This document shows positions 33,531 to 39,655 of a DNA stretch of 64,000 nucleotides, piece after piece. The DNA comes from Acidobacteriota bacterium (GTDB lineage Bacteria > Acidobacteriota > Vicinamibacteria > Vicinamibacterales > CAVVIG01). Where the stretch lies: assembly GCA_043743165.1 (NCBI GenBank), contig JAYTXA010000059.1, positions 70,816 to 134,815 on the forward strand. Direction: 5' to 3'. The stretch's first letter is position 1. Every line of letters begins with the position of its first letter. The translations under genes and the position numbers were made by a program. The notes under the pieces are model-generated. The model was not told the DNA's origin. It did not search any database and saw nothing but the letters and a program-made list of their open reading frames with translations.

Positions 33531-34232
33531 CTATCCCTTGGGATTGAAACGATAACCGACCCAGGGTTCCGTCACCAGGTAGCGCGGGTTCGACGGATCC
33601 GGTTCCAGCTTCTTGCGCAGCTGTCCCATGAACACACGCAGGTATTCGGGCTGTTCCTGCGACGCCTGCCCCCACACCGCTTCGAGCAGTGCGGCGTGCG
33701 TCAGCACGCGGCTCGGGTGGCGCGCCATATAGACGAACAGGTCGAACTCCTTCGGCGTCAGGCGCACTTCGCGTCCCTGCGTGTGCACGCGACGCGCGTC
33801 CATGTCGACGCGGAAGTCGCCCGCCTCGAATGACGACGGCTCGTCCACGGCTGGTGTGCCACGGCGGCGCAGGGCGGCGCGCACGCGCGCCATCAACTCG
33901 TCGATCCCGAACGGCTTGGTCACGTAGTCGTCGGCGCCCGAGTCGAGCGCTTCTACCTTGCTGCGCTCCTCGCCCTTCACCGACAGGACGATGATCGGCA
34001 CCGTCGACGTCTCGCGAATGCGCCGGCATAGTTCCACGCCGTCCATGTGCGGCATGTAGAGATCGGTGATGACCAGTTCGGGCTGGAACTCCCGGAAATC
34101 GACCAGCGCGCGCTCACCCTCGGGGGCGGTGCGCACGTCGTAGCCCTGGCTGCTGAGGACGGTCTTCAGCACCCGCGTGATCTGGGGTTCATCGTCGACG
34201 ACAAGCACTCGCGAGCTCTCTGCGCGGTTCAT
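33531..34232 (-). CDS. OmpR/KdpE-like response regulator
   Basis: ATG 34232 (MNRAESSRVLVVDDEPQI...). The receiver has D-D-K residues (ITDLYMPHMDG) and there is a winged-helix C-terminus (LTPKEFDLF..., GYRF). Confidence 0.9.
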   Translation of the reverse strand: MNRAESSRVLVVDDEPQITRVLKTVLSSQGYDVRTAPEGERALVDFREFQPELVITDLYMPHMDGVELCRRIRETSTVPIIVLSVKGEERSKVEALDSGADDYVTKPFGIDELMARVRAALRRRGTPAVDEPSSFEAGDFRVDMDARRVHTQGREVRLTPKEFDLFVYMARHPSRVLTHAALLEAVWGQASQEQPEYLRVFMGQLRKKLEPDPSNPRYLVTEPWVGYRFNPKG

Positions 34233-34243
34233 GAATGGATCTC

Positions 34244-35431
34244 CTATGCGCGAAGCGCGATCTGCGCCTGCATGTTCTCTGTCAACGTCTCGGTCGCCAC
34301 GCACGGCAGCGTGAGCACAACGGCGGTGCCTCGTCCCGAAGCTGGGGTCTCGATGCCAATCTGTCCGGCCTGTGATTCGACGAGGCGCCTCGCAATCGGC
34401 AGTCCGAGGCCGATGCCGGTTCGCTGCGGGTCGACCGACTCCCGTCCCGGTATGCGGAAGAACTTCTTGAAGACCTGCTCGCGCAACTCCGGCGCGATGC
34501 CCGGGCCCTCGTCCTCGACCGTGATGCAGACGTGGTGCGGGTCGGCGACGCGTGCGCTGACGCGAATCGTCGTGCCGAGCGGCGCGTACTTGCTGGCGTT
34601 GTCGATGAGCGTGTAGAGCACCTCGCCGATTGCCGAGCGGTCGACGGCTAACTGCGGCAGGTCCGGCGGCAGCTCGGTTACCACGTGGTGCCGGCGCGCC
34701 ACCGTTTCGGCTCGCGCCACCGACTCGCGCACCACCTGCTCGACGGACACGGCGCGGAAGCTGCTCGGCTGGCTCGGGTCGGGCCGGTCGGCCACGGTCA
34801 GCCCTTCGATGAACCGGTTCAAGCGATCCGATTCCTCGTCGATGACTACCAGCAGATCCCTGCGGCTCGCACTCGAGAGCGCCGACGCATCGATCTCGTC
34901 GGAGCCGAGCATCGCCGTGACTGACGCCTTGATCGCGGTGAGCGGCGTGCGCAGGTTGTGGGTGAGCGCATCGAGCAGCGCCGCCTTCAACTGCTCGTTA
35001 CGCCGCGCCGCCTCGGCCTCGCTCGCCCGCTCGAACGCCGCACCGAGCTGTGTGTAGAGCTCTTCGATCTCCCGCTTCCCGTCCTCGAGCTCCATCTGCC
35101 GCCGTTCCGCGCGCGCCGCGAGTTCCCCGACGACCACCGCCGTGATGGTGAAGACGCCGAAAGCCACCCAGTCGTTGATGTCTTCGATGAAAAGACCGGC
35201 GGGAGGCAGGAAGTAGAACGAGAAGGCGATGCCCGAACACGCCGCGGCCATCAACGCGGGTCCCGTCCCCAGTTCGCGCGCAACCAGCAGCACGGCGAGA
35301 AGCAGGACCGGGGCGGCCGCACCGGTCGTGATCGCCGGAATGGCGAACAGCAGCTCAGCGCAGACACCGATCACCGCGATCGGGATCAGGTATGCGACGA
35401 AACGAGCCTGTGGCGACGCCCTGCGGAACAC
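34244..35431 (-). CDS. KdpD C-terminal-type sensor histidine kinase (no N-terminal KdpD/Usp module)
   Basis: 395-aa ORF with a four-TM DUF4118-like segment, an H-box LTHNLRTPLTAI, and an ATPase domain (DNASKYAP, EDEGPGI, GIGLGL). Confidence 0.85.
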   Translation of the reverse strand: MFRRASPQARFVAYLIPIAVIGVCAELLFAIPAITTGAAAPVLLLAVLLVARELGTGPALMAAACSGIAFSFYFLPPAGLFIEDINDWVAFGVFTITAVVVGELAARAERRQMELEDGKREIEELYTQLGAAFERASEAEAARRNEQLKAALLDALTHNLRTPLTAIKASVTAMLGSDEIDASALSSASRRDLLVVIDEESDRLNRFIEGLTVADRPDPSQPSSFRAVSVEQVVRESVARAETVARRHHVVTELPPDLPQLAVDRSAIGEVLYTLIDNASKYAPLGTTIRVSARVADPHHVCITVEDEGPGIAPELREQVFKKFFRIPGRESVDPQRTGIGLGLPIARRLVESQAGQIGIETPASGRGTAVVLTLPCVATETLTENMQAQIALRA

Positions 35432-35540: not shown

Positions 35541-36413
35541 TCAGTAGCCGGACGAGGTGGCGGTTGGCTTCTCGCCTCGGGCCTGCTGCACGATCTTCAC
35601 CCCGGCACTGGCGCCGACCCGCGTGGCGCCGGCTGCCACCATGGCCTTGAGGCCGTCGAGATCGCGTACGCCTCCAGCGGCCTTCACGCCCATCTCGGCC
35701 CCGACCACGCGGCGCATCAACGCCACGTCGGTCGCCGTGGCGCCGCCAGGGCCGAAGCCGGTGGAGGTCTTCACGTAGTCGGCGCCGGCCGCCTTGGCGA
35801 GCGTGCACGCCGTCACCTTCTCGTCGTCGGTCAGCAGCGCCGCCTCGATGATCACCTTGCTCAGTACTCCGCACTCGCGACACGTGGACGCCACCGCCTC
35901 GATGTCGCGCTCGACGACGCGCAGGTCACCGGACTTGAGGGCGCCAACATTGATCACCATGTCGATCTCGCGCGCGCCGTCGAAGATGGCGCGACGCGTC
36001 TCGTACGCCTTCACGTCGCTGGTGGTGGCGCCGAGCGGAAAGCCGACGACCGAACAAACACCGACGCCGCTGCCAGCCAGCAGGCGGGCGGCCGTGGCCA
36101 CCCAGGCCGGGTTCACGCAGACGGTGGCGAACTTGAACTGCGACGCCTCGCGGCACAGGTGCTCGATCTCCTGCCGCGTCGCGTCGGCCTTCAGCAGCGT
36201 GTGGTCGATCATCGAGGCCACGCCCTCAGGAGCACCGCCCGTGGCGAGCACGCCAACGCGGGTCGCGCCCGCTTCAATCACGCCCTGCAGTCGATTCGGA
36301 CAGCACTCGGCCGTCACCGAGTGGCACGCGCAGCGCGCGGCACGTGGCGTCTGGGCCGCCGACAGCTCGGAGACGATGAGGGTGATGAGTCGCTGCAGTT
36401 CGTCGCGTGTCAC
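35541..36413 (-). CDS. deoC: deoxyribose-phosphate aldolase with ~70-aa N-terminal extension
   Basis: The core is [22 protein letters not shown]...VKTSTGF...VKAAGGVR. The extension is [21 protein letters not shown]...[15 protein letters not shown]. Confidence 0.85.
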
Positions 36414-36414
36414 G

Positions 36415-37047
36415 TCAGCTCCGTCGTTCCAGGTCGCGGATCTTGGTCAGGCGCCGGATGTAGCGCGGCTCGCGCATGGCGGTCGATATCCAGGTGGTGA
36501 CGATGGCCTTTGCCTCGTCCACACTGAGCAGCGACGCGCCTAGCGCCAGCACGTTCGCGCCGTTGTGCTCGCGCGAGTAGCGCGCAATGGTTTCCGTGGT
36601 GGCCATGACGGCGCGGACGCCGTCGATCTTGTTCGCGGCGATCGCCGAGCCGATGCCTGCTCCGTCGATCACGATACCGGCGTCGGCCTCGCCGCGTGCC
36701 ACCGGACGCGCCACCGATGCGGCCACGTCCGGGTAGTCGACCGATACCGTGGAGTCGGTGCCGAGATCGAGCACGGTCAGGCCCCGGCCGCGCAGGAACG
36801 TGATGAGGGCGCGGCGCAGGGCGATGCCGGTGTGATCGCTTGCCACGGCCATCACCCTGATGTCGGCCGTCGGCACGAGCGCGTTCGCATCCGCCGGCGC
36901 CTCGGTGTCGAGCACTACGGCGATGCGCCGTTCGCGGAGCGTGTCCTGGGCTAGCGGCGTAATGTGCCCGTGCCGAGCCAGTTGCACCGGCTCGCCCGCG
37001 GGCAGGACGCGGGCGTCAGCCTCGGTGATGAACGCAAATCGCTTCAC
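36415..37047 (-). CDS. rpiB: RpiB/LacA/LacB-family sugar-phosphate isomerase with N- and C-terminal extensions
   Basis: GTG start. The core is [34 protein letters not shown]...[17 protein letters not shown]...ALGA. There is an extra ~60 aa at the N-terminus and a basic tail [19 protein letters not shown]. Confidence 0.8.
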
Positions 37048-37076
37048 AGGGTGCCCCGGAGTATCATGCAGAATCC

Positions 37077-37601
37077 ATGGTCGACCGTCGCCCGTCCAAC
37101 GTCCTGATTTCCGCCGAACAGCTCGAGAGCCGCGTCGCCGAACTGGCCGCGCAGATCCGAGCCGACTACCCCGAGAACCTGCACATCATCGCGGTGCTGA
37201 AGGGGGCGTTCATGTTCATGTCGGACCTGGTCCGTCATATGGACGGCAGCGTCTCGATGGACTTCATGGCCCTGTCCAGCTACGCAAAGGGCACGACGAC
37301 GTCCGGCGAAGTGCGGCTGCTGAAGGACCTGGATACCTCGCTCGACGGCAAGGATGTGCTCATCGTCGAGGACATCGTCGACACCGGGCTGACGCTCACC
37401 TACCTGCAGGAGATCCTGCGGGCGCGCAATCCACGCACGCTGCGCACGGCGTGCCTGCTGAGCAAGCCGTCGCGCCGCAAGGTGGAGGTGACGGTGGAAT
37501 ACGTCGGTTTCACCATCGACGATCACTTCGTCGTCGGCTACGGCCTCGACTACGCCGAGCAGTACCGCAACCTGCCGTACATCGGCCTGATCGAAACCTA
37601 G
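37077..37601 (+). CDS. hpt: hypoxanthine phosphoribosyltransferase
   Basis: 174-aa ORF with PRPP-binding loop VLIVEDIVDTGLTL and the VVGYGLDYAEQYRNLPYI tail. Confidence 0.93.
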   Translation: MVDRRPSNVLISAEQLESRVAELAAQIRADYPENLHIIAVLKGAFMFMSDLVRHMDGSVSMDFMALSSYAKGTTTSGEVRLLKDLDTSLDGKDVLIVEDIVDTGLTLTYLQEILRARNPRTLRTACLLSKPSRRKVEVTVEYVGFTIDDHFVVGYGLDYAEQYRNLPYIGLIET

Positions 37602-37612
37602 CGCGCGTCCCC

Positions 37613-39004
37613 TCACTGGACGGCGTCCCGCACCTTCTGCGCCAGCGCCTTCGCCTGCGCCAGCACCTCGGCTTCGTTCAGCGTGCTCAGGCGACGATCG
37701 CGCATCAGCACCTTCCCGTTCACGATGGTGTTCCGCACATCGTCGCCGCGCGTGACGTAGACCAGGTGCGACACCGCGTCGTACATCGGCACCTGCCGGG
37801 CGGCACTCATCGACACCGTAATCAGGTCGGCGCGCTTGCCCGGCTCGAGCGAGCCGATGAGCGCGTCCATGCCAAGCGCCCTGGCGCCGTTGATGGTGGC
37901 CATGTCCAGCGCCACCTGCGCCGGCACCGCCGTCGGGTTGCCGGAGGACAGCTTCGCCAGGAACGAGGCCTGGCGCATCGCCTCGAACATGTCGAGGTCG
38001 TTGTTGCTCGCGGCCCCGTCGGTGCCGAGCGCCAGGTTGACGCCGGCCGCCAGGTACTTCAGCACCGGCGCGGCGCCGCTGGCGAGCTTCATATTGCTCT
38101 CGGGGTTGTGCGAGATGCCGACGTTGTGCTTCTTCAGGATGGCGATGTCGTCGTCGGTCACCCAGATGCCGTGGGCCGCCACCGTCTTCGGCCCCCAGAA
38201 ACCGAGCGACTCCAGGTAGCCGGCCGGCGTGCTCTGGTGCTCGTCGCGCGCCGTCTTTACCTCGTCCTGCGTTTCGGCCAGGTGGATGAGCACCGGCACG
38301 TTGTACTTGCGGCCGAGCGCCGCCGTGGCCTGCAGCGTGGCGGCATCGAGCGTGTACATCGCGTGCGGCGCCACGGCGGGGACGATGAGCGGGTCGTTCC
38401 GGTACTGCTGGATGAAGGCTTCGGCGCGCGCCAGCCCCTCGGCCGGCGTCTTGGCGTCGGCTACCGGAAACTGGATGACCGTCTGGCCGAGGACACCACG
38501 CAGGCCCACTTCCTTCGTGGCCTTCGCGACCTGGTCCTCGAAGTAATACATGTCGGTGTAGGTCGTCGTGCCCGACTGGATCATCTCGAGCGCGGCCAGC
38601 CGCGTCCCGGTGCGGACGAAGTCGGGCGACACCGTCTTCGCCTCGGCCGGGAAGATGTACTTCTGCAGCCAGTCCATCAGCGCCAGGTCGTCGGCGAGGC
38701 CGCGGAACATCACCATCGCCGCGTGCGTGTGGGTGTTGATCAGGCCGGGCAGGACGATCTGGTCGCGCGCGTCGATCGTCTGCGCGGCGCTGTAGCGCGC
38801 CGCGATCTCGGCGGGAGTGCCGACCTCGACGATGTCGGTGCCGTTGATGGCGACCGCACCGGGCGACAGCACTTGGCGCGTGTCGTTCTCGGTGAGGACC
38901 GTGCCGCCGATCACCACCAGCGACACCGCGCGTCTGGCTCCCTGCGCCGACGCGACGACCGTCGCGGCCACCAGCGCCAGAACGACCGCGAGAGATGCAC
39001 GCAT
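37613..39004 (-). CDS. amidohydrolase (MtaD/SsnA-like deaminase family) with signal peptide
   Basis: ATG 39004 (MRASLAVVLALVAATVVASAQG) lies within the over-long track ORF 37613..39787. Metal-binding motifs are INTHTHAAM, HLAET and GTDGAASNNDLDM. Confidence 0.85.
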   Translation of the reverse strand: MRASLAVVLALVAATVVASAQGARRAVSLVVIGGTVLTENDTRQVLSPGAVAINGTDIVEVGTPAEIAARYSAAQTIDARDQIVLPGLINTHTHAAMVMFRGLADDLALMDWLQKYIFPAEAKTVSPDFVRTGTRLAALEMIQSGTTTYTDMYYFEDQVAKATKEVGLRGVLGQTVIQFPVADAKTPAEGLARAEAFIQQYRNDPLIVPAVAPHAMYTLDAATLQATAALGRKYNVPVLIHLAETQDEVKTARDEHQSTPAGYLESLGFWGPKTVAAHGIWVTDDDIAILKKHNVGISHNPESNMKLASGAAPVLKYLAAGVNLALGTDGAASNNDLDMFEAMRQASFLAKLSSGNPTAVPAQVALDMATINGARALGMDALIGSLEPGKRADLITVSMSAARQVPMYDAVSHLVYVTRGDDVRNTIVNGKVLMRDRRLSTLNEAEVLAQAKALAQKVRDAVQ

Positions 39005-39031: not shown

Positions 39032-39655
39032 GTGCCGGTCCACATCATCGATCACCCACTGGTGCATGACGCGCTCGTCGAGCTGCGCGACAAGCAGACG
39101 TCGCCTGCGCACTTCCGGCGCGCTGCCACCCGCATCAGCGTGCTGCTGGCAGCGGAGGCGCTGCGCGAGGCGCCGTCGGTGGTCGTCACCGTCGAGACGC
39201 CGATCGGGCCCGCACCCGGACGTCGGCTGAAGCCCGAAGTGGTGGTAGTGCCGGTGCTGCGTGCCGGACTCGGCATGCTCGACGCGGTGCTGGAACTGGT
39301 GCCCGATGCGCGTGTCGGCCACATCGGCCTGCAGCGCGACGAGGAAACCGCCATCGCCTCGCGCTACTACTCGAAGCTGCCGAACCGGCTCGAACACAGT
39401 TACGTGCTGATGATCGATCCGATGCTGGCCACGGGCGGATCGGCCGTGGCGGCGATCGACCTGCTGCATCAGGCCGGTGCGAGGGACGTCCGGATCGTGT
39501 GCATCGTGGCGGCGCCGGAAGGCATCGCCACCGTCGAGCAGCACTTTCCGCATGTGCATATCTACACGCCAGTAGTCGACCTGAAGCTGAACGAGCACAA
39601 GTACATCGTGCCGGGCCTGGGCGACTTCGGCGATCGGTTGTACGGCACGCTGTAA
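39032..39655 (+). CDS. upp: uracil phosphoribosyltransferase
   Basis: 207-aa ORF (GTG start) with HPLV...LRD, MIDPMLATGGS and YIVPGLGDFGDRLYGT. Confidence 0.93.
   Translation: MPVHIIDHPLVHDALVELRDKQTSPAHFRRAATRISVLLAAEALREAPSVVVTVETPIGPAPGRRLKPEVVVVPVLRAGLGMLDAVLELVPDARVGHIGLQRDEETAIASRYYSKLPNRLEHSYVLMIDPMLATGGSAVAAIDLLHQAGARDVRIVCIVAAPEGIATVEQHFPHVHIYTPVVDLKLNEHKYIVPGLGDFGDRLYGTL

Follow-up and report, generated by a model that had tools for sequence, protein, structure and literature searches.

The window analysed here, a 64,000-nucleotide stretch of contig JAYTXA010000059.1 (C59) from a metagenome-assembled genome of the order Vicinamibacterales (Acidobacteriota; GCA_043743165.1), carries two adjacent minus-strand genes whose products bear N-terminal extensions. 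The upstream gene (36415-37047) encodes a 210-residue RpiB-family protein, assigned from the open reading frame (ORF) table, Pfam and NCBIfam to the ribose-5-phosphate isomerases (RPI) of sugar-phosphate-utilisation (SPU) type. According to the ORF table its stop codon lies 1 nt from the GTG start of deoC (35541-36413), which encodes a 290-residue deoxyribose-phosphate aldolase (DERA) of the kind associated with SPU bacterial microcompartments (BMCs). The original prediction had read both extensions as encapsulation peptides in a window free of BMC-H and BMC-P shell genes, and a profile search for the shell domains PF00936 and PF03319 indeed gave no match on C59. We argue below that rpiB-deoC is probably satellite DERA-RPI cargo of an ACI-type microcompartment encoded on other contigs of the same genome.

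Residues 66-290 of DeoC (35544..36218) form the DERA TIM barrel, as delimited by profile ranges and by AlphaFold2 confidence (pLDDT >90). Pfam placed the DeoC domain at residues 67-276, the NCBIfam deoC equivalog TIGR00126 scored 274 bits over residues 66-276 (cut-off 117), and the catalytic residues D151, K186 and K215 aligned with D102, K167 and K201 of E. coli. Ahead of the barrel lies an extension of about 66-68 residues comprising an amphipathic helix, a variable linker and a Cys-rich segment, so that the domain ranges, the structural model and the hydrophobic moment (muH) all agreed with the earlier claim that the protein starts some 70 residues ahead of its canonical region with an amphipathic helix. 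Searched alone, the extension matched no Pfam family, and neither E. coli DeoC nor the DeoC of two shell-less genomes (G068, G144) has it. AlphaFold2 (60-sequence alignment, mean pLDDT 87) predicted a helix at residues 3-20, a low-confidence stretch, a second helix at residues 39-47 and then the barrel.

The first helix (36354..36407; pLDDT 89/80 for the helix block) is a putative encapsulation peptide. Its muH was 0.56 for residues 4-18, a value reached by 1.4% of shuffles, and R8, L9, I10, I13 and E16 were kept at 73-90% in the 60 sequences, which span several phyla. The linker at residues 21-27 (36333..36353) varied in length in the alignment and had low pLDDT at residues 21-23. Among 41 close homologues, pairwise divergence at codon positions 1/2/3 was 0.37/0.25/0.52 for helix residues 4-20 and 0.23/0.15/0.55 for the Cys segment at residues 28-54, compared with 0.58/0.59/0.61 for the linker. 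Judged by codon position, this pattern shows purifying selection on the helix and the Cys segment and none on the linker.

The PduP tag used for comparison, MNTSELETLIRTILSEQL, proved correct (PMC5405515). By our own count, 8 of 17 positions (M1, E5, L6, L9, I10, I13, S15 and E16) are common to residues 1-18 of Salmonella PduP and residues 1-17 of DeoC, in register. Like the encapsulation peptides of PduP and PduD, the DeoC extension opens with a short amphipathic helix and continues in a linker of low conservation. The enzymes that carry these peptides are unrelated, however, and the likeness is one of pattern rather than of demonstrable homology. DeoC also differs in the conserved Cys-rich segment that follows its linker.

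This segment (residues 28-54; 36252..36332) contains the cluster C28-A-C30-H31-x5-C37-C38-P, helix 39-47 and the motif G49-A50-x-R52, as defined by the alignment and the codon pattern. C28 and C30 were 91% conserved and G49, A50 and R52 were invariant in the 60 sequences. The segment had been described as a Cys-rich linker; Cys-rich it is, but it is not a mere linker: its sequence is conserved, and it persists in genomes that have lost both helix and shell. The Cys/His cluster could conceivably bind a metal. In DeoC extensions from other phyla (L065, L068, L071, L079, L080, L083) it has a different form, which in Chloroflexota is C-x-C-x4-C-x3-C. It is absent from some Acidimicrobiia and other SPU DERAs (L075, L084, L089, L069) and is thus common but not universal.

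In RpiB, the Pfam LacAB_rpiB domain covers residues 67-203, leaving a 66-residue N-terminal extension. The predicted extension of about 60 residues was therefore borne out, being translated and conserved, but its reading as an amphipathic encapsulation peptide did not hold: residues 1-46 (36910..37047) correspond to a small folded module that resembles the N-termini of EutT and EutQ. AlphaFold2 (48 sequences, mean pLDDT 93) predicted a compact beta-alpha-beta-alpha-beta fold for residues 2-46 (module pLDDT 90-97) without a leading amphipathic helix, whereas Chloroflexota homologues bear helix and module. The codon-position pattern in about 40 genomes pointed to purifying selection on the module too. 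A basic helical tail that had been counted as a further extension is none: it aligned with the C-terminal helix that E. coli RpiB also has and that is usual in the family. At the active site, Asp128 aligned with the catalytic Cys66 of E. coli and was invariant in the 48 sequences, while the His was retained. A second RpiB, on contig C7 (40765-41223), has no extension and carries a GGSGxGE active site of the Glu-base, Mycobacterium type; it is likely to be the cell's real housekeeping ribose-5-phosphate isomerase.

The first 46 residues of RpiB follow the pattern FxIITExDAR...G..V.L..GGHVTPLA.DTL..RRV. When a hidden Markov model of this module was run against all 50,580 ORFs of the genome, the best non-self match was the C-terminus of the genome's own ACI aldehyde dehydrogenase (E 0.038), where the module recurs (...DFVCEDDVRLALRAGRTLTVSERAIITPSARELG...); matches after it lay in non-coding frames, and no further cargo was found in this set. 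The C-terminal end of PF15953 ('PDU_like') was matched by 17 of 23 homologous modules, with a best E of 3.9e-5 that is under the family cut-off but consistent. In hhalign, the module aligned with residues 3-46 of E. coli EutT with a probability of 92% (E 6.6e-7), a stretch with which the aldehyde dehydrogenase tail aligns too. A sequence search of the module against PDB chains returned nothing significant (best PrpR, E 0.14). The N-termini of EutT and EutQ, the RpiB module and the aldehyde dehydrogenase tail have the pattern xITExDxR...G..(V/I).L.....(I/V)TP.A...L in common. Residues 9-41 of EutQ bind the Eut shell, and of these four modules EutQ is the only one for which shell binding has been shown (PMC12487888). 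The carrier enzymes here differ from EutT and EutQ, the module sits at the C-terminus in the aldehyde dehydrogenase, and the model of strands and helices differs from the four helices described for EutQ 1-99 (PMC12487888). By analogy, then, the RpiB module is a putative shell-binding or assembly device.

SPU loci are defined by the pair pfam01791 and pfam02502 (Sutter et al. 2021, PMC8217296), as the original prediction had stated for DeoC and RpiB, and both families are adjacent here in the order rpiB then deoC. All SPU DERAs carry an N-terminal extension of about 70 residues, a long amphipathic helix followed by two strands, and all SPU RPIs carry an N-terminal extension, described as an encapsulation-peptide helix followed by a linker, together with a Cys to Asp change at the catalytic position (Dwyer et al. 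2024, PMC11585597). The one RPI assayed, from Chloroflexi, had negligible ribose-5-phosphate isomerase activity, and DERA and RPI formed a 1:1 complex (PMC11585597). Alignment with proteins from SPU loci gave the same picture for the pair in the window: extensions of SPU DERAs from shell-adjacent loci aligned with that of DeoC, both being about 70 residues long, opening with a long amphipathic helix that leads into a structured segment and retaining the catalytic Asp/Lys/Lys in the enzyme behind it, and the RPIs had the N-terminal extension and the Cys to Asp change in common. Where the Chloroflexota RPI has its leading amphipathic helix, this RPI opens directly with the folded module. Being DERA-binding and catalytically altered, RPI probably acts as an adaptor rather than as an isomerase.

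The locus itself is unlike an SPU locus. There, DERA and RPI stand together with BMC-H, a BMC-P triplet, at least one BMC-T and an aldehyde dehydrogenase, whereas no shell, aldehyde dehydrogenase or other BMC genes were found in the 64-kb window or within 10 kb in about 50 relatives. Among 80 related loci, collected in a scan of one genome per species, every Vicinamibacterales locus was without a shell gene within 10 kb of rpiB-deoC, while in Chloroflexota, Fidelibacterota, Lentisphaerota, Planctomycetota and Actinomycetota the pair lay directly upstream of BMC-H, BMC-P and aldehyde dehydrogenase genes, and in distant shell-adjacent loci the two genes were sometimes fused. In a catalytic-domain tree the detached acidobacterial DeoC formed one clade (SH-aLRT 87) among shell-adjacent clades. 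In closed genomes of relatives these loci are far removed from the BMC-H match listed for the genome; in G061, for example, DeoC and the aldehyde dehydrogenase map to 3.97 and 4.20 Mb and BMC-H to 0.73 Mb (725 kb).

In most Vicinamibacterales loci the pair belongs to a conserved upp - amidohydrolase - hpt - rpiB - deoC block, with hpt present in 45, the amidohydrolase in 38 and upp in 37. In the window these neighbours, which serve as context, are hpt (hypoxanthine phosphoribosyltransferase; 37077..37601, plus strand; TIGR01203, 225 bits; not cargo), whose divergent start lies 29 bp from that of rpiB; a TRZ/ATZ-family amidohydrolase resembling nucleoside or base deaminases (37613..39004, minus strand; scores under equivalog cut-offs); and upp (uracil phosphoribosyltransferase; 39032..39655, plus strand; NF001097, 255 bits).

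A whole-genome profile search located the shell genes, three for BMC-H and three for BMC-P, on contigs C11, C35 and C66. The main locus (C11 35252-38652) holds a class II aldolase, one BMC-H, three BMC-P and a 2-hydroxyacid dehydrogenase. A satellite locus (C35 3538-5574) holds a BMC-H followed by a 583-residue aldehyde dehydrogenase that scored 615 bits on TIGR02518 (acetylating acetaldehyde dehydrogenase; cut-off 620). The class II aldolase tail ends LTYRELSALIEDAIRSLK, with a muH of 0.55 that 1.6% of shuffles reached. The remaining BMC-H gene stands alone on C66 (47233-47580), with toxin-antitoxin-like neighbours and no enzyme or other shell gene near it; among the shell genes of this organelle it is the third BMC-H paralogue and an orphan.

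Vicinamibacteria correspond to Acidobacteria subdivision 6, and the closest related loci were assigned to Vicinamibacterales or Acidobacteriota, which fits the host range of the ACI type. ACI microcompartments have been reported from 125 acidobacterial genomes, in groups abundant in soil; they are reported only from subdivisions 4 and 6, and a satellite locus always carries their aldehyde dehydrogenase (Sutter et al. 2021, PMC8217296). In gene content the organelle of the host genome matches this type feature by feature: present in both are the class II aldolase (pfam00596) with a C-terminal helix, the 2-hydroxyacid dehydrogenase (pfam00389/02826), the BMC-P triplet, BMC-H, and an aldehyde dehydrogenase that shares a satellite locus with a further BMC-H. 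The shell set is thus of ACI rather than SPU type. ACI is listed with those types that lack an obvious signature enzyme for producing an aldehyde, its aldehyde dehydrogenase is described as close in phylogeny to the MIC3 enzyme alone, and its published description names neither DERA nor RPI (PMC8217296).

We then compared 151 Vicinamibacterales genomes. BMC-H was found in 145 and DeoC in 131, and 138 matched the ACI aldehyde dehydrogenase at E <=1e-60; matches of at least 60% identity mostly spanned its C-terminal tail, and about 15 weaker ones (about 40% identity) ended near residue 460-470. DeoC aligned from the helix onwards in 99 genomes, all of them shell-positive (99/99). Five shell-less genomes had a DeoC, and the helix was absent from all five (5/5), so that the extension was not found to persist with its helix in relatives lacking microcompartments (0/5).

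Natural losses were in line with this association. The genus g40 comprises three shell-less genomes of 1.5-2.5 Mb whose DeoC opens MK.SKQG.TVRRCDCH..., a stop codon lying just ahead of it; this DeoC has lost the helix and kept the Cys segment and barrel. No extended RpiB lies beside deoC in g40, only the housekeeping RpiB was present genome-wide in 2/3 genomes checked, and the ACI aldehyde dehydrogenase was not found in the g40 genomes. A further candidate, a congener with shell genes and no DeoC (G134), was rejected as an informative deletion, as hpt was also absent and an assembly gap is most likely.

Two rival readings give the extensions no present role. Mis-called start codons, which would make the extensions untranslated upstream sequence, might be suspected from the GTG start of deoC, from the 29 bp that separate the rpiB and hpt starts, and from the frequent loss of such extensions in automated annotation (Dwyer et al. 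2024, PMC11585597), but this is extremely improbable. Both proteins were matched by tblastn from residue 1-5 in about 50 loci of Vicinamibacterales and other Acidobacteriota, with ATG at the equivalent start position in many relatives and a stop codon shortly upstream in several; both extensions had a G+C content at third codon positions (0.79 and 0.85) that is usual for local coding sequence, and both have confident predicted folds. Conservation of the extension from residue 1, together with the purifying selection on it, rules out a start further downstream, and with it the start-codon reassignment that the original prediction had allowed for. It is also very unlikely that the extensions are decaying remnants of a lost SPU organelle without present function. 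The pair does stand apart from all shell genes and the extension has been lost several times within the order, yet helix, Cys segment and RpiB module are all under purifying selection in about 40 genomes, the helix residues are conserved across phyla, and both extensions have confidently predicted structure. Moreover, g40, where the organelle is truly gone, has deleted the helix, which implies that relics do not persist. Of the two fates first proposed for the pair, the selection pattern therefore speaks against a relic, and shell genes elsewhere in the genome, together with the 99/99 co-occurrence, speak for satellite cargo.

A cytosolic role, in which a former SPU cargo pair now works in deoxynucleoside catabolism and the extensions serve the DERA-RPI complex, oligomerisation, or metal or redox regulation through the Cys cluster, appears unlikely to us but draws on several observations, some of which also weigh against satellite cargo. 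DeoC was the sole tblastn match in the genome, and this single copy must serve any cytosolic need too; the pair sits inside a conserved nucleotide-salvage block, not a BMC locus. In family f10 (12 sampled genomes) shell and aldehyde dehydrogenase genes occur without DeoC, with no extended RpiB in the 5/12 genomes checked, and DERA-RPI is therefore optional and dispensable for the organelle. Genus g56 (G072, G107 and G140; loci L093-L095) and genome G012 (L099) have kept the shell and the extended RpiB while losing the whole DeoC extension. The helix could be an interface of the complex into which DERA and RPI assemble in vitro (PMC11585597), and g40 lost the helix and the extended RpiB together. 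On the other hand, g56 and G012 keep extended RpiB without the DeoC extension, which argues against strict mutual dependence, and helix-bearing DeoC was confined to shell-positive genomes. The helix also has a pattern like that of proven encapsulation peptides such as PduP 1-18, a helix with an unconstrained linker is the standard design of such peptides, and the RpiB module is common to the organelle's aldehyde dehydrogenase and to the Eut microcompartment proteins EutT and EutQ. Other points also tell against satellite cargo. The association of helix and shell (Fisher p 7e-4) carries no phylogenetic correction, and the shell-less cases amount to about three independent events. A helix profile run against all genome ORFs scored only DeoC itself, other matches being noise, and so failed to link the helix to the class II aldolase tail, although such a profile is too short to inform. 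The hhalign match of the RpiB module to EutQ residues 4-45 was weak (E 8.4e-4, probability 24%). No tandem BMC domain (BMC-T), which all SPU subtypes encode, was found in the genome. Of the expected partner enzymes the aldehyde dehydrogenase was found on C35 and a PduL-type phosphotransacylase was not found genome-wide. Comparison of upstream regions gave no convincing regulatory motif common to the dispersed loci. Encapsulation of DERA-RPI is itself something that we infer from sequence and models, as for any ACI organelle.

On balance we favour satellite DERA-RPI cargo of the ACI microcompartment. Homology, gene arrangement, conservation, co-occurrence, co-loss and predicted folds carry this interpretation, and it is from these that we infer a shell-binding role for the helix or the module, as well as the substrate. 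In Vicinamibacterales, an SPU-type DERA-RPI module would have moved into the shell-less nucleotide-salvage block. The genome encodes a pyrimidine nucleoside phosphorylase and a phosphopentomutase (deoB), both scoring over curated cut-offs, and a route from deoxynucleosides to deoxyribose-5-phosphate therefore exists. Deoxynucleosides would be phosphorolysed and converted to deoxyribose-5-phosphate, the freed bases being salvaged by the neighbouring Hpt and Upp. Inside the shell, cleavage of deoxyribose-5-phosphate by DERA would yield glyceraldehyde-3-phosphate and acetaldehyde, the latter being turned into acetyl-CoA by the ACI aldehyde dehydrogenase. Two targeting devices may be involved: the N-terminal amphipathic helix of DERA, with a similar helix ending the class II aldolase, and the EutT/EutQ-N-like module on RPI, found again at the C-terminus of the aldehyde dehydrogenase.

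A broader picture, which we put forward only tentatively, is that ACI may be a scattered-gene metabolosome drawing cargo from at least four unlinked loci through two address systems, the helix on DERA and aldolase and the folded module on a non-catalytic RPI adaptor and the aldehyde dehydrogenase. DERA-RPI would then be an optional plug-in adding deoxyribose-5-phosphate, a DNA-derived carbon source, as a second substrate to an aldolase core. In this picture the Cys/His cluster of DERA, because it survives loss of the organelle, would belong to the enzyme itself, as a site for a metal or for redox chemistry, and not to targeting. The losses in g56 and G012 may represent natural release of DERA from the organelle; that in G012 resembles an in-frame deletion relative to its congener G030.

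Several further observations concern the loci and their surroundings. In families f3 and f7 of Vicinamibacterales, DeoC lies in ORFs of about 440 residues, probably RpiB-DeoC fusions, 1-2 kb from BMC-H (G051:C2:1477040-1478685, G037:C34:172167-173858, G026:C1:673167-674816), and attached and detached arrangements therefore coexist within the order. Records L010, L016, L028, L035 and L042, titled Bifidobacterium, Betaproteobacteria and Acidimicrobiia, were 70-89% identical with full Vicinamibacterales synteny and are most likely mislabelled or contaminated bins. Directly downstream of deoC, window positions 33531-35431 encode a KdpD-like histidine kinase lacking the N-terminal sensor half and a KdpE-like regulator; these adjoin deoC in only 7-11 related loci and are probably unrelated to the pair. 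A 15/16-nt match, CATGAT[G/A]CTCCGGGG, occurs upstream of rpiB (window 37054-37069) and upstream of the BMC-H and aldehyde dehydrogenase genes on C35 (3422-3437), and nowhere else in the 4.7-Mb genome. It was set aside as a shared regulatory signal and not counted as evidence, as its distances to the starts are unequal and it is not kept in relatives. Upstream of rpiB in relatives only a -10-like TAnnnT was seen, 7-15 nt before the start, and the mRNA could be leaderless or have a short leader. The 112-bp spacer between aldolase and BMC-H on C11 (36143-36254; L007 10143-10254) holds two tandem heptamer arrays, GCAGATT-like x3 and AACTCTG x3, which may be a lineage-wide intergenic repeat.

Much of the material for this interpretation was already in print: both enzymes, their extensions and the SPU concept (PMC8217296, PMC11585597), and the ACI shell set together with the idea of a distal DeoC bearing an encapsulation peptide in HO-type genomes (PMC8217296). 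In those genomes, from Myxobacteria, a distal pfam01791 aldolase with an encapsulation-peptide-like N-terminus was proposed as cargo, as here, but the shell type and phylum are different and the proposal is a single-sentence remark without an RPI partner, co-occurrence or synteny (PMC8217296). New relative to the published ACI and SPU descriptions (PMC8217296, PMC11585597) are the link from the ACI organelle to a DERA-RPI module, the conservation of this module throughout the order at a nucleotide-salvage locus free of shell genes, the pattern of co-loss, the division of the DERA extension into an organelle-tied helix and a longer-lived Cys/His segment, and the EutT/EutQ-like module common to RPI and the ACI aldehyde dehydrogenase. 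The 2021 survey gathered genes only within 12 ORFs of a shell gene (PMC8217296), and a shell-less cargo locus was therefore out of its reach.

These findings point to a blind spot of locus-based surveys, in which cargo genes far from shell genes are never gathered, and the functions of microcompartment types now called incomplete or unknown may sit elsewhere in the same genome. For ACI, DERA-RPI offers a testable substrate candidate, deoxyribose-5-phosphate from DNA turnover. Published work treats the DERA extension as a single unit, whereas g40, with the helix lost and the Cys segment kept, and g56 and G012, with both lost, separate a targeting part from a second conserved part. The module found in RpiB, the aldehyde dehydrogenase, EutT and EutQ may be a general, portable shell-address domain, which would be useful to those who engineer microcompartments.

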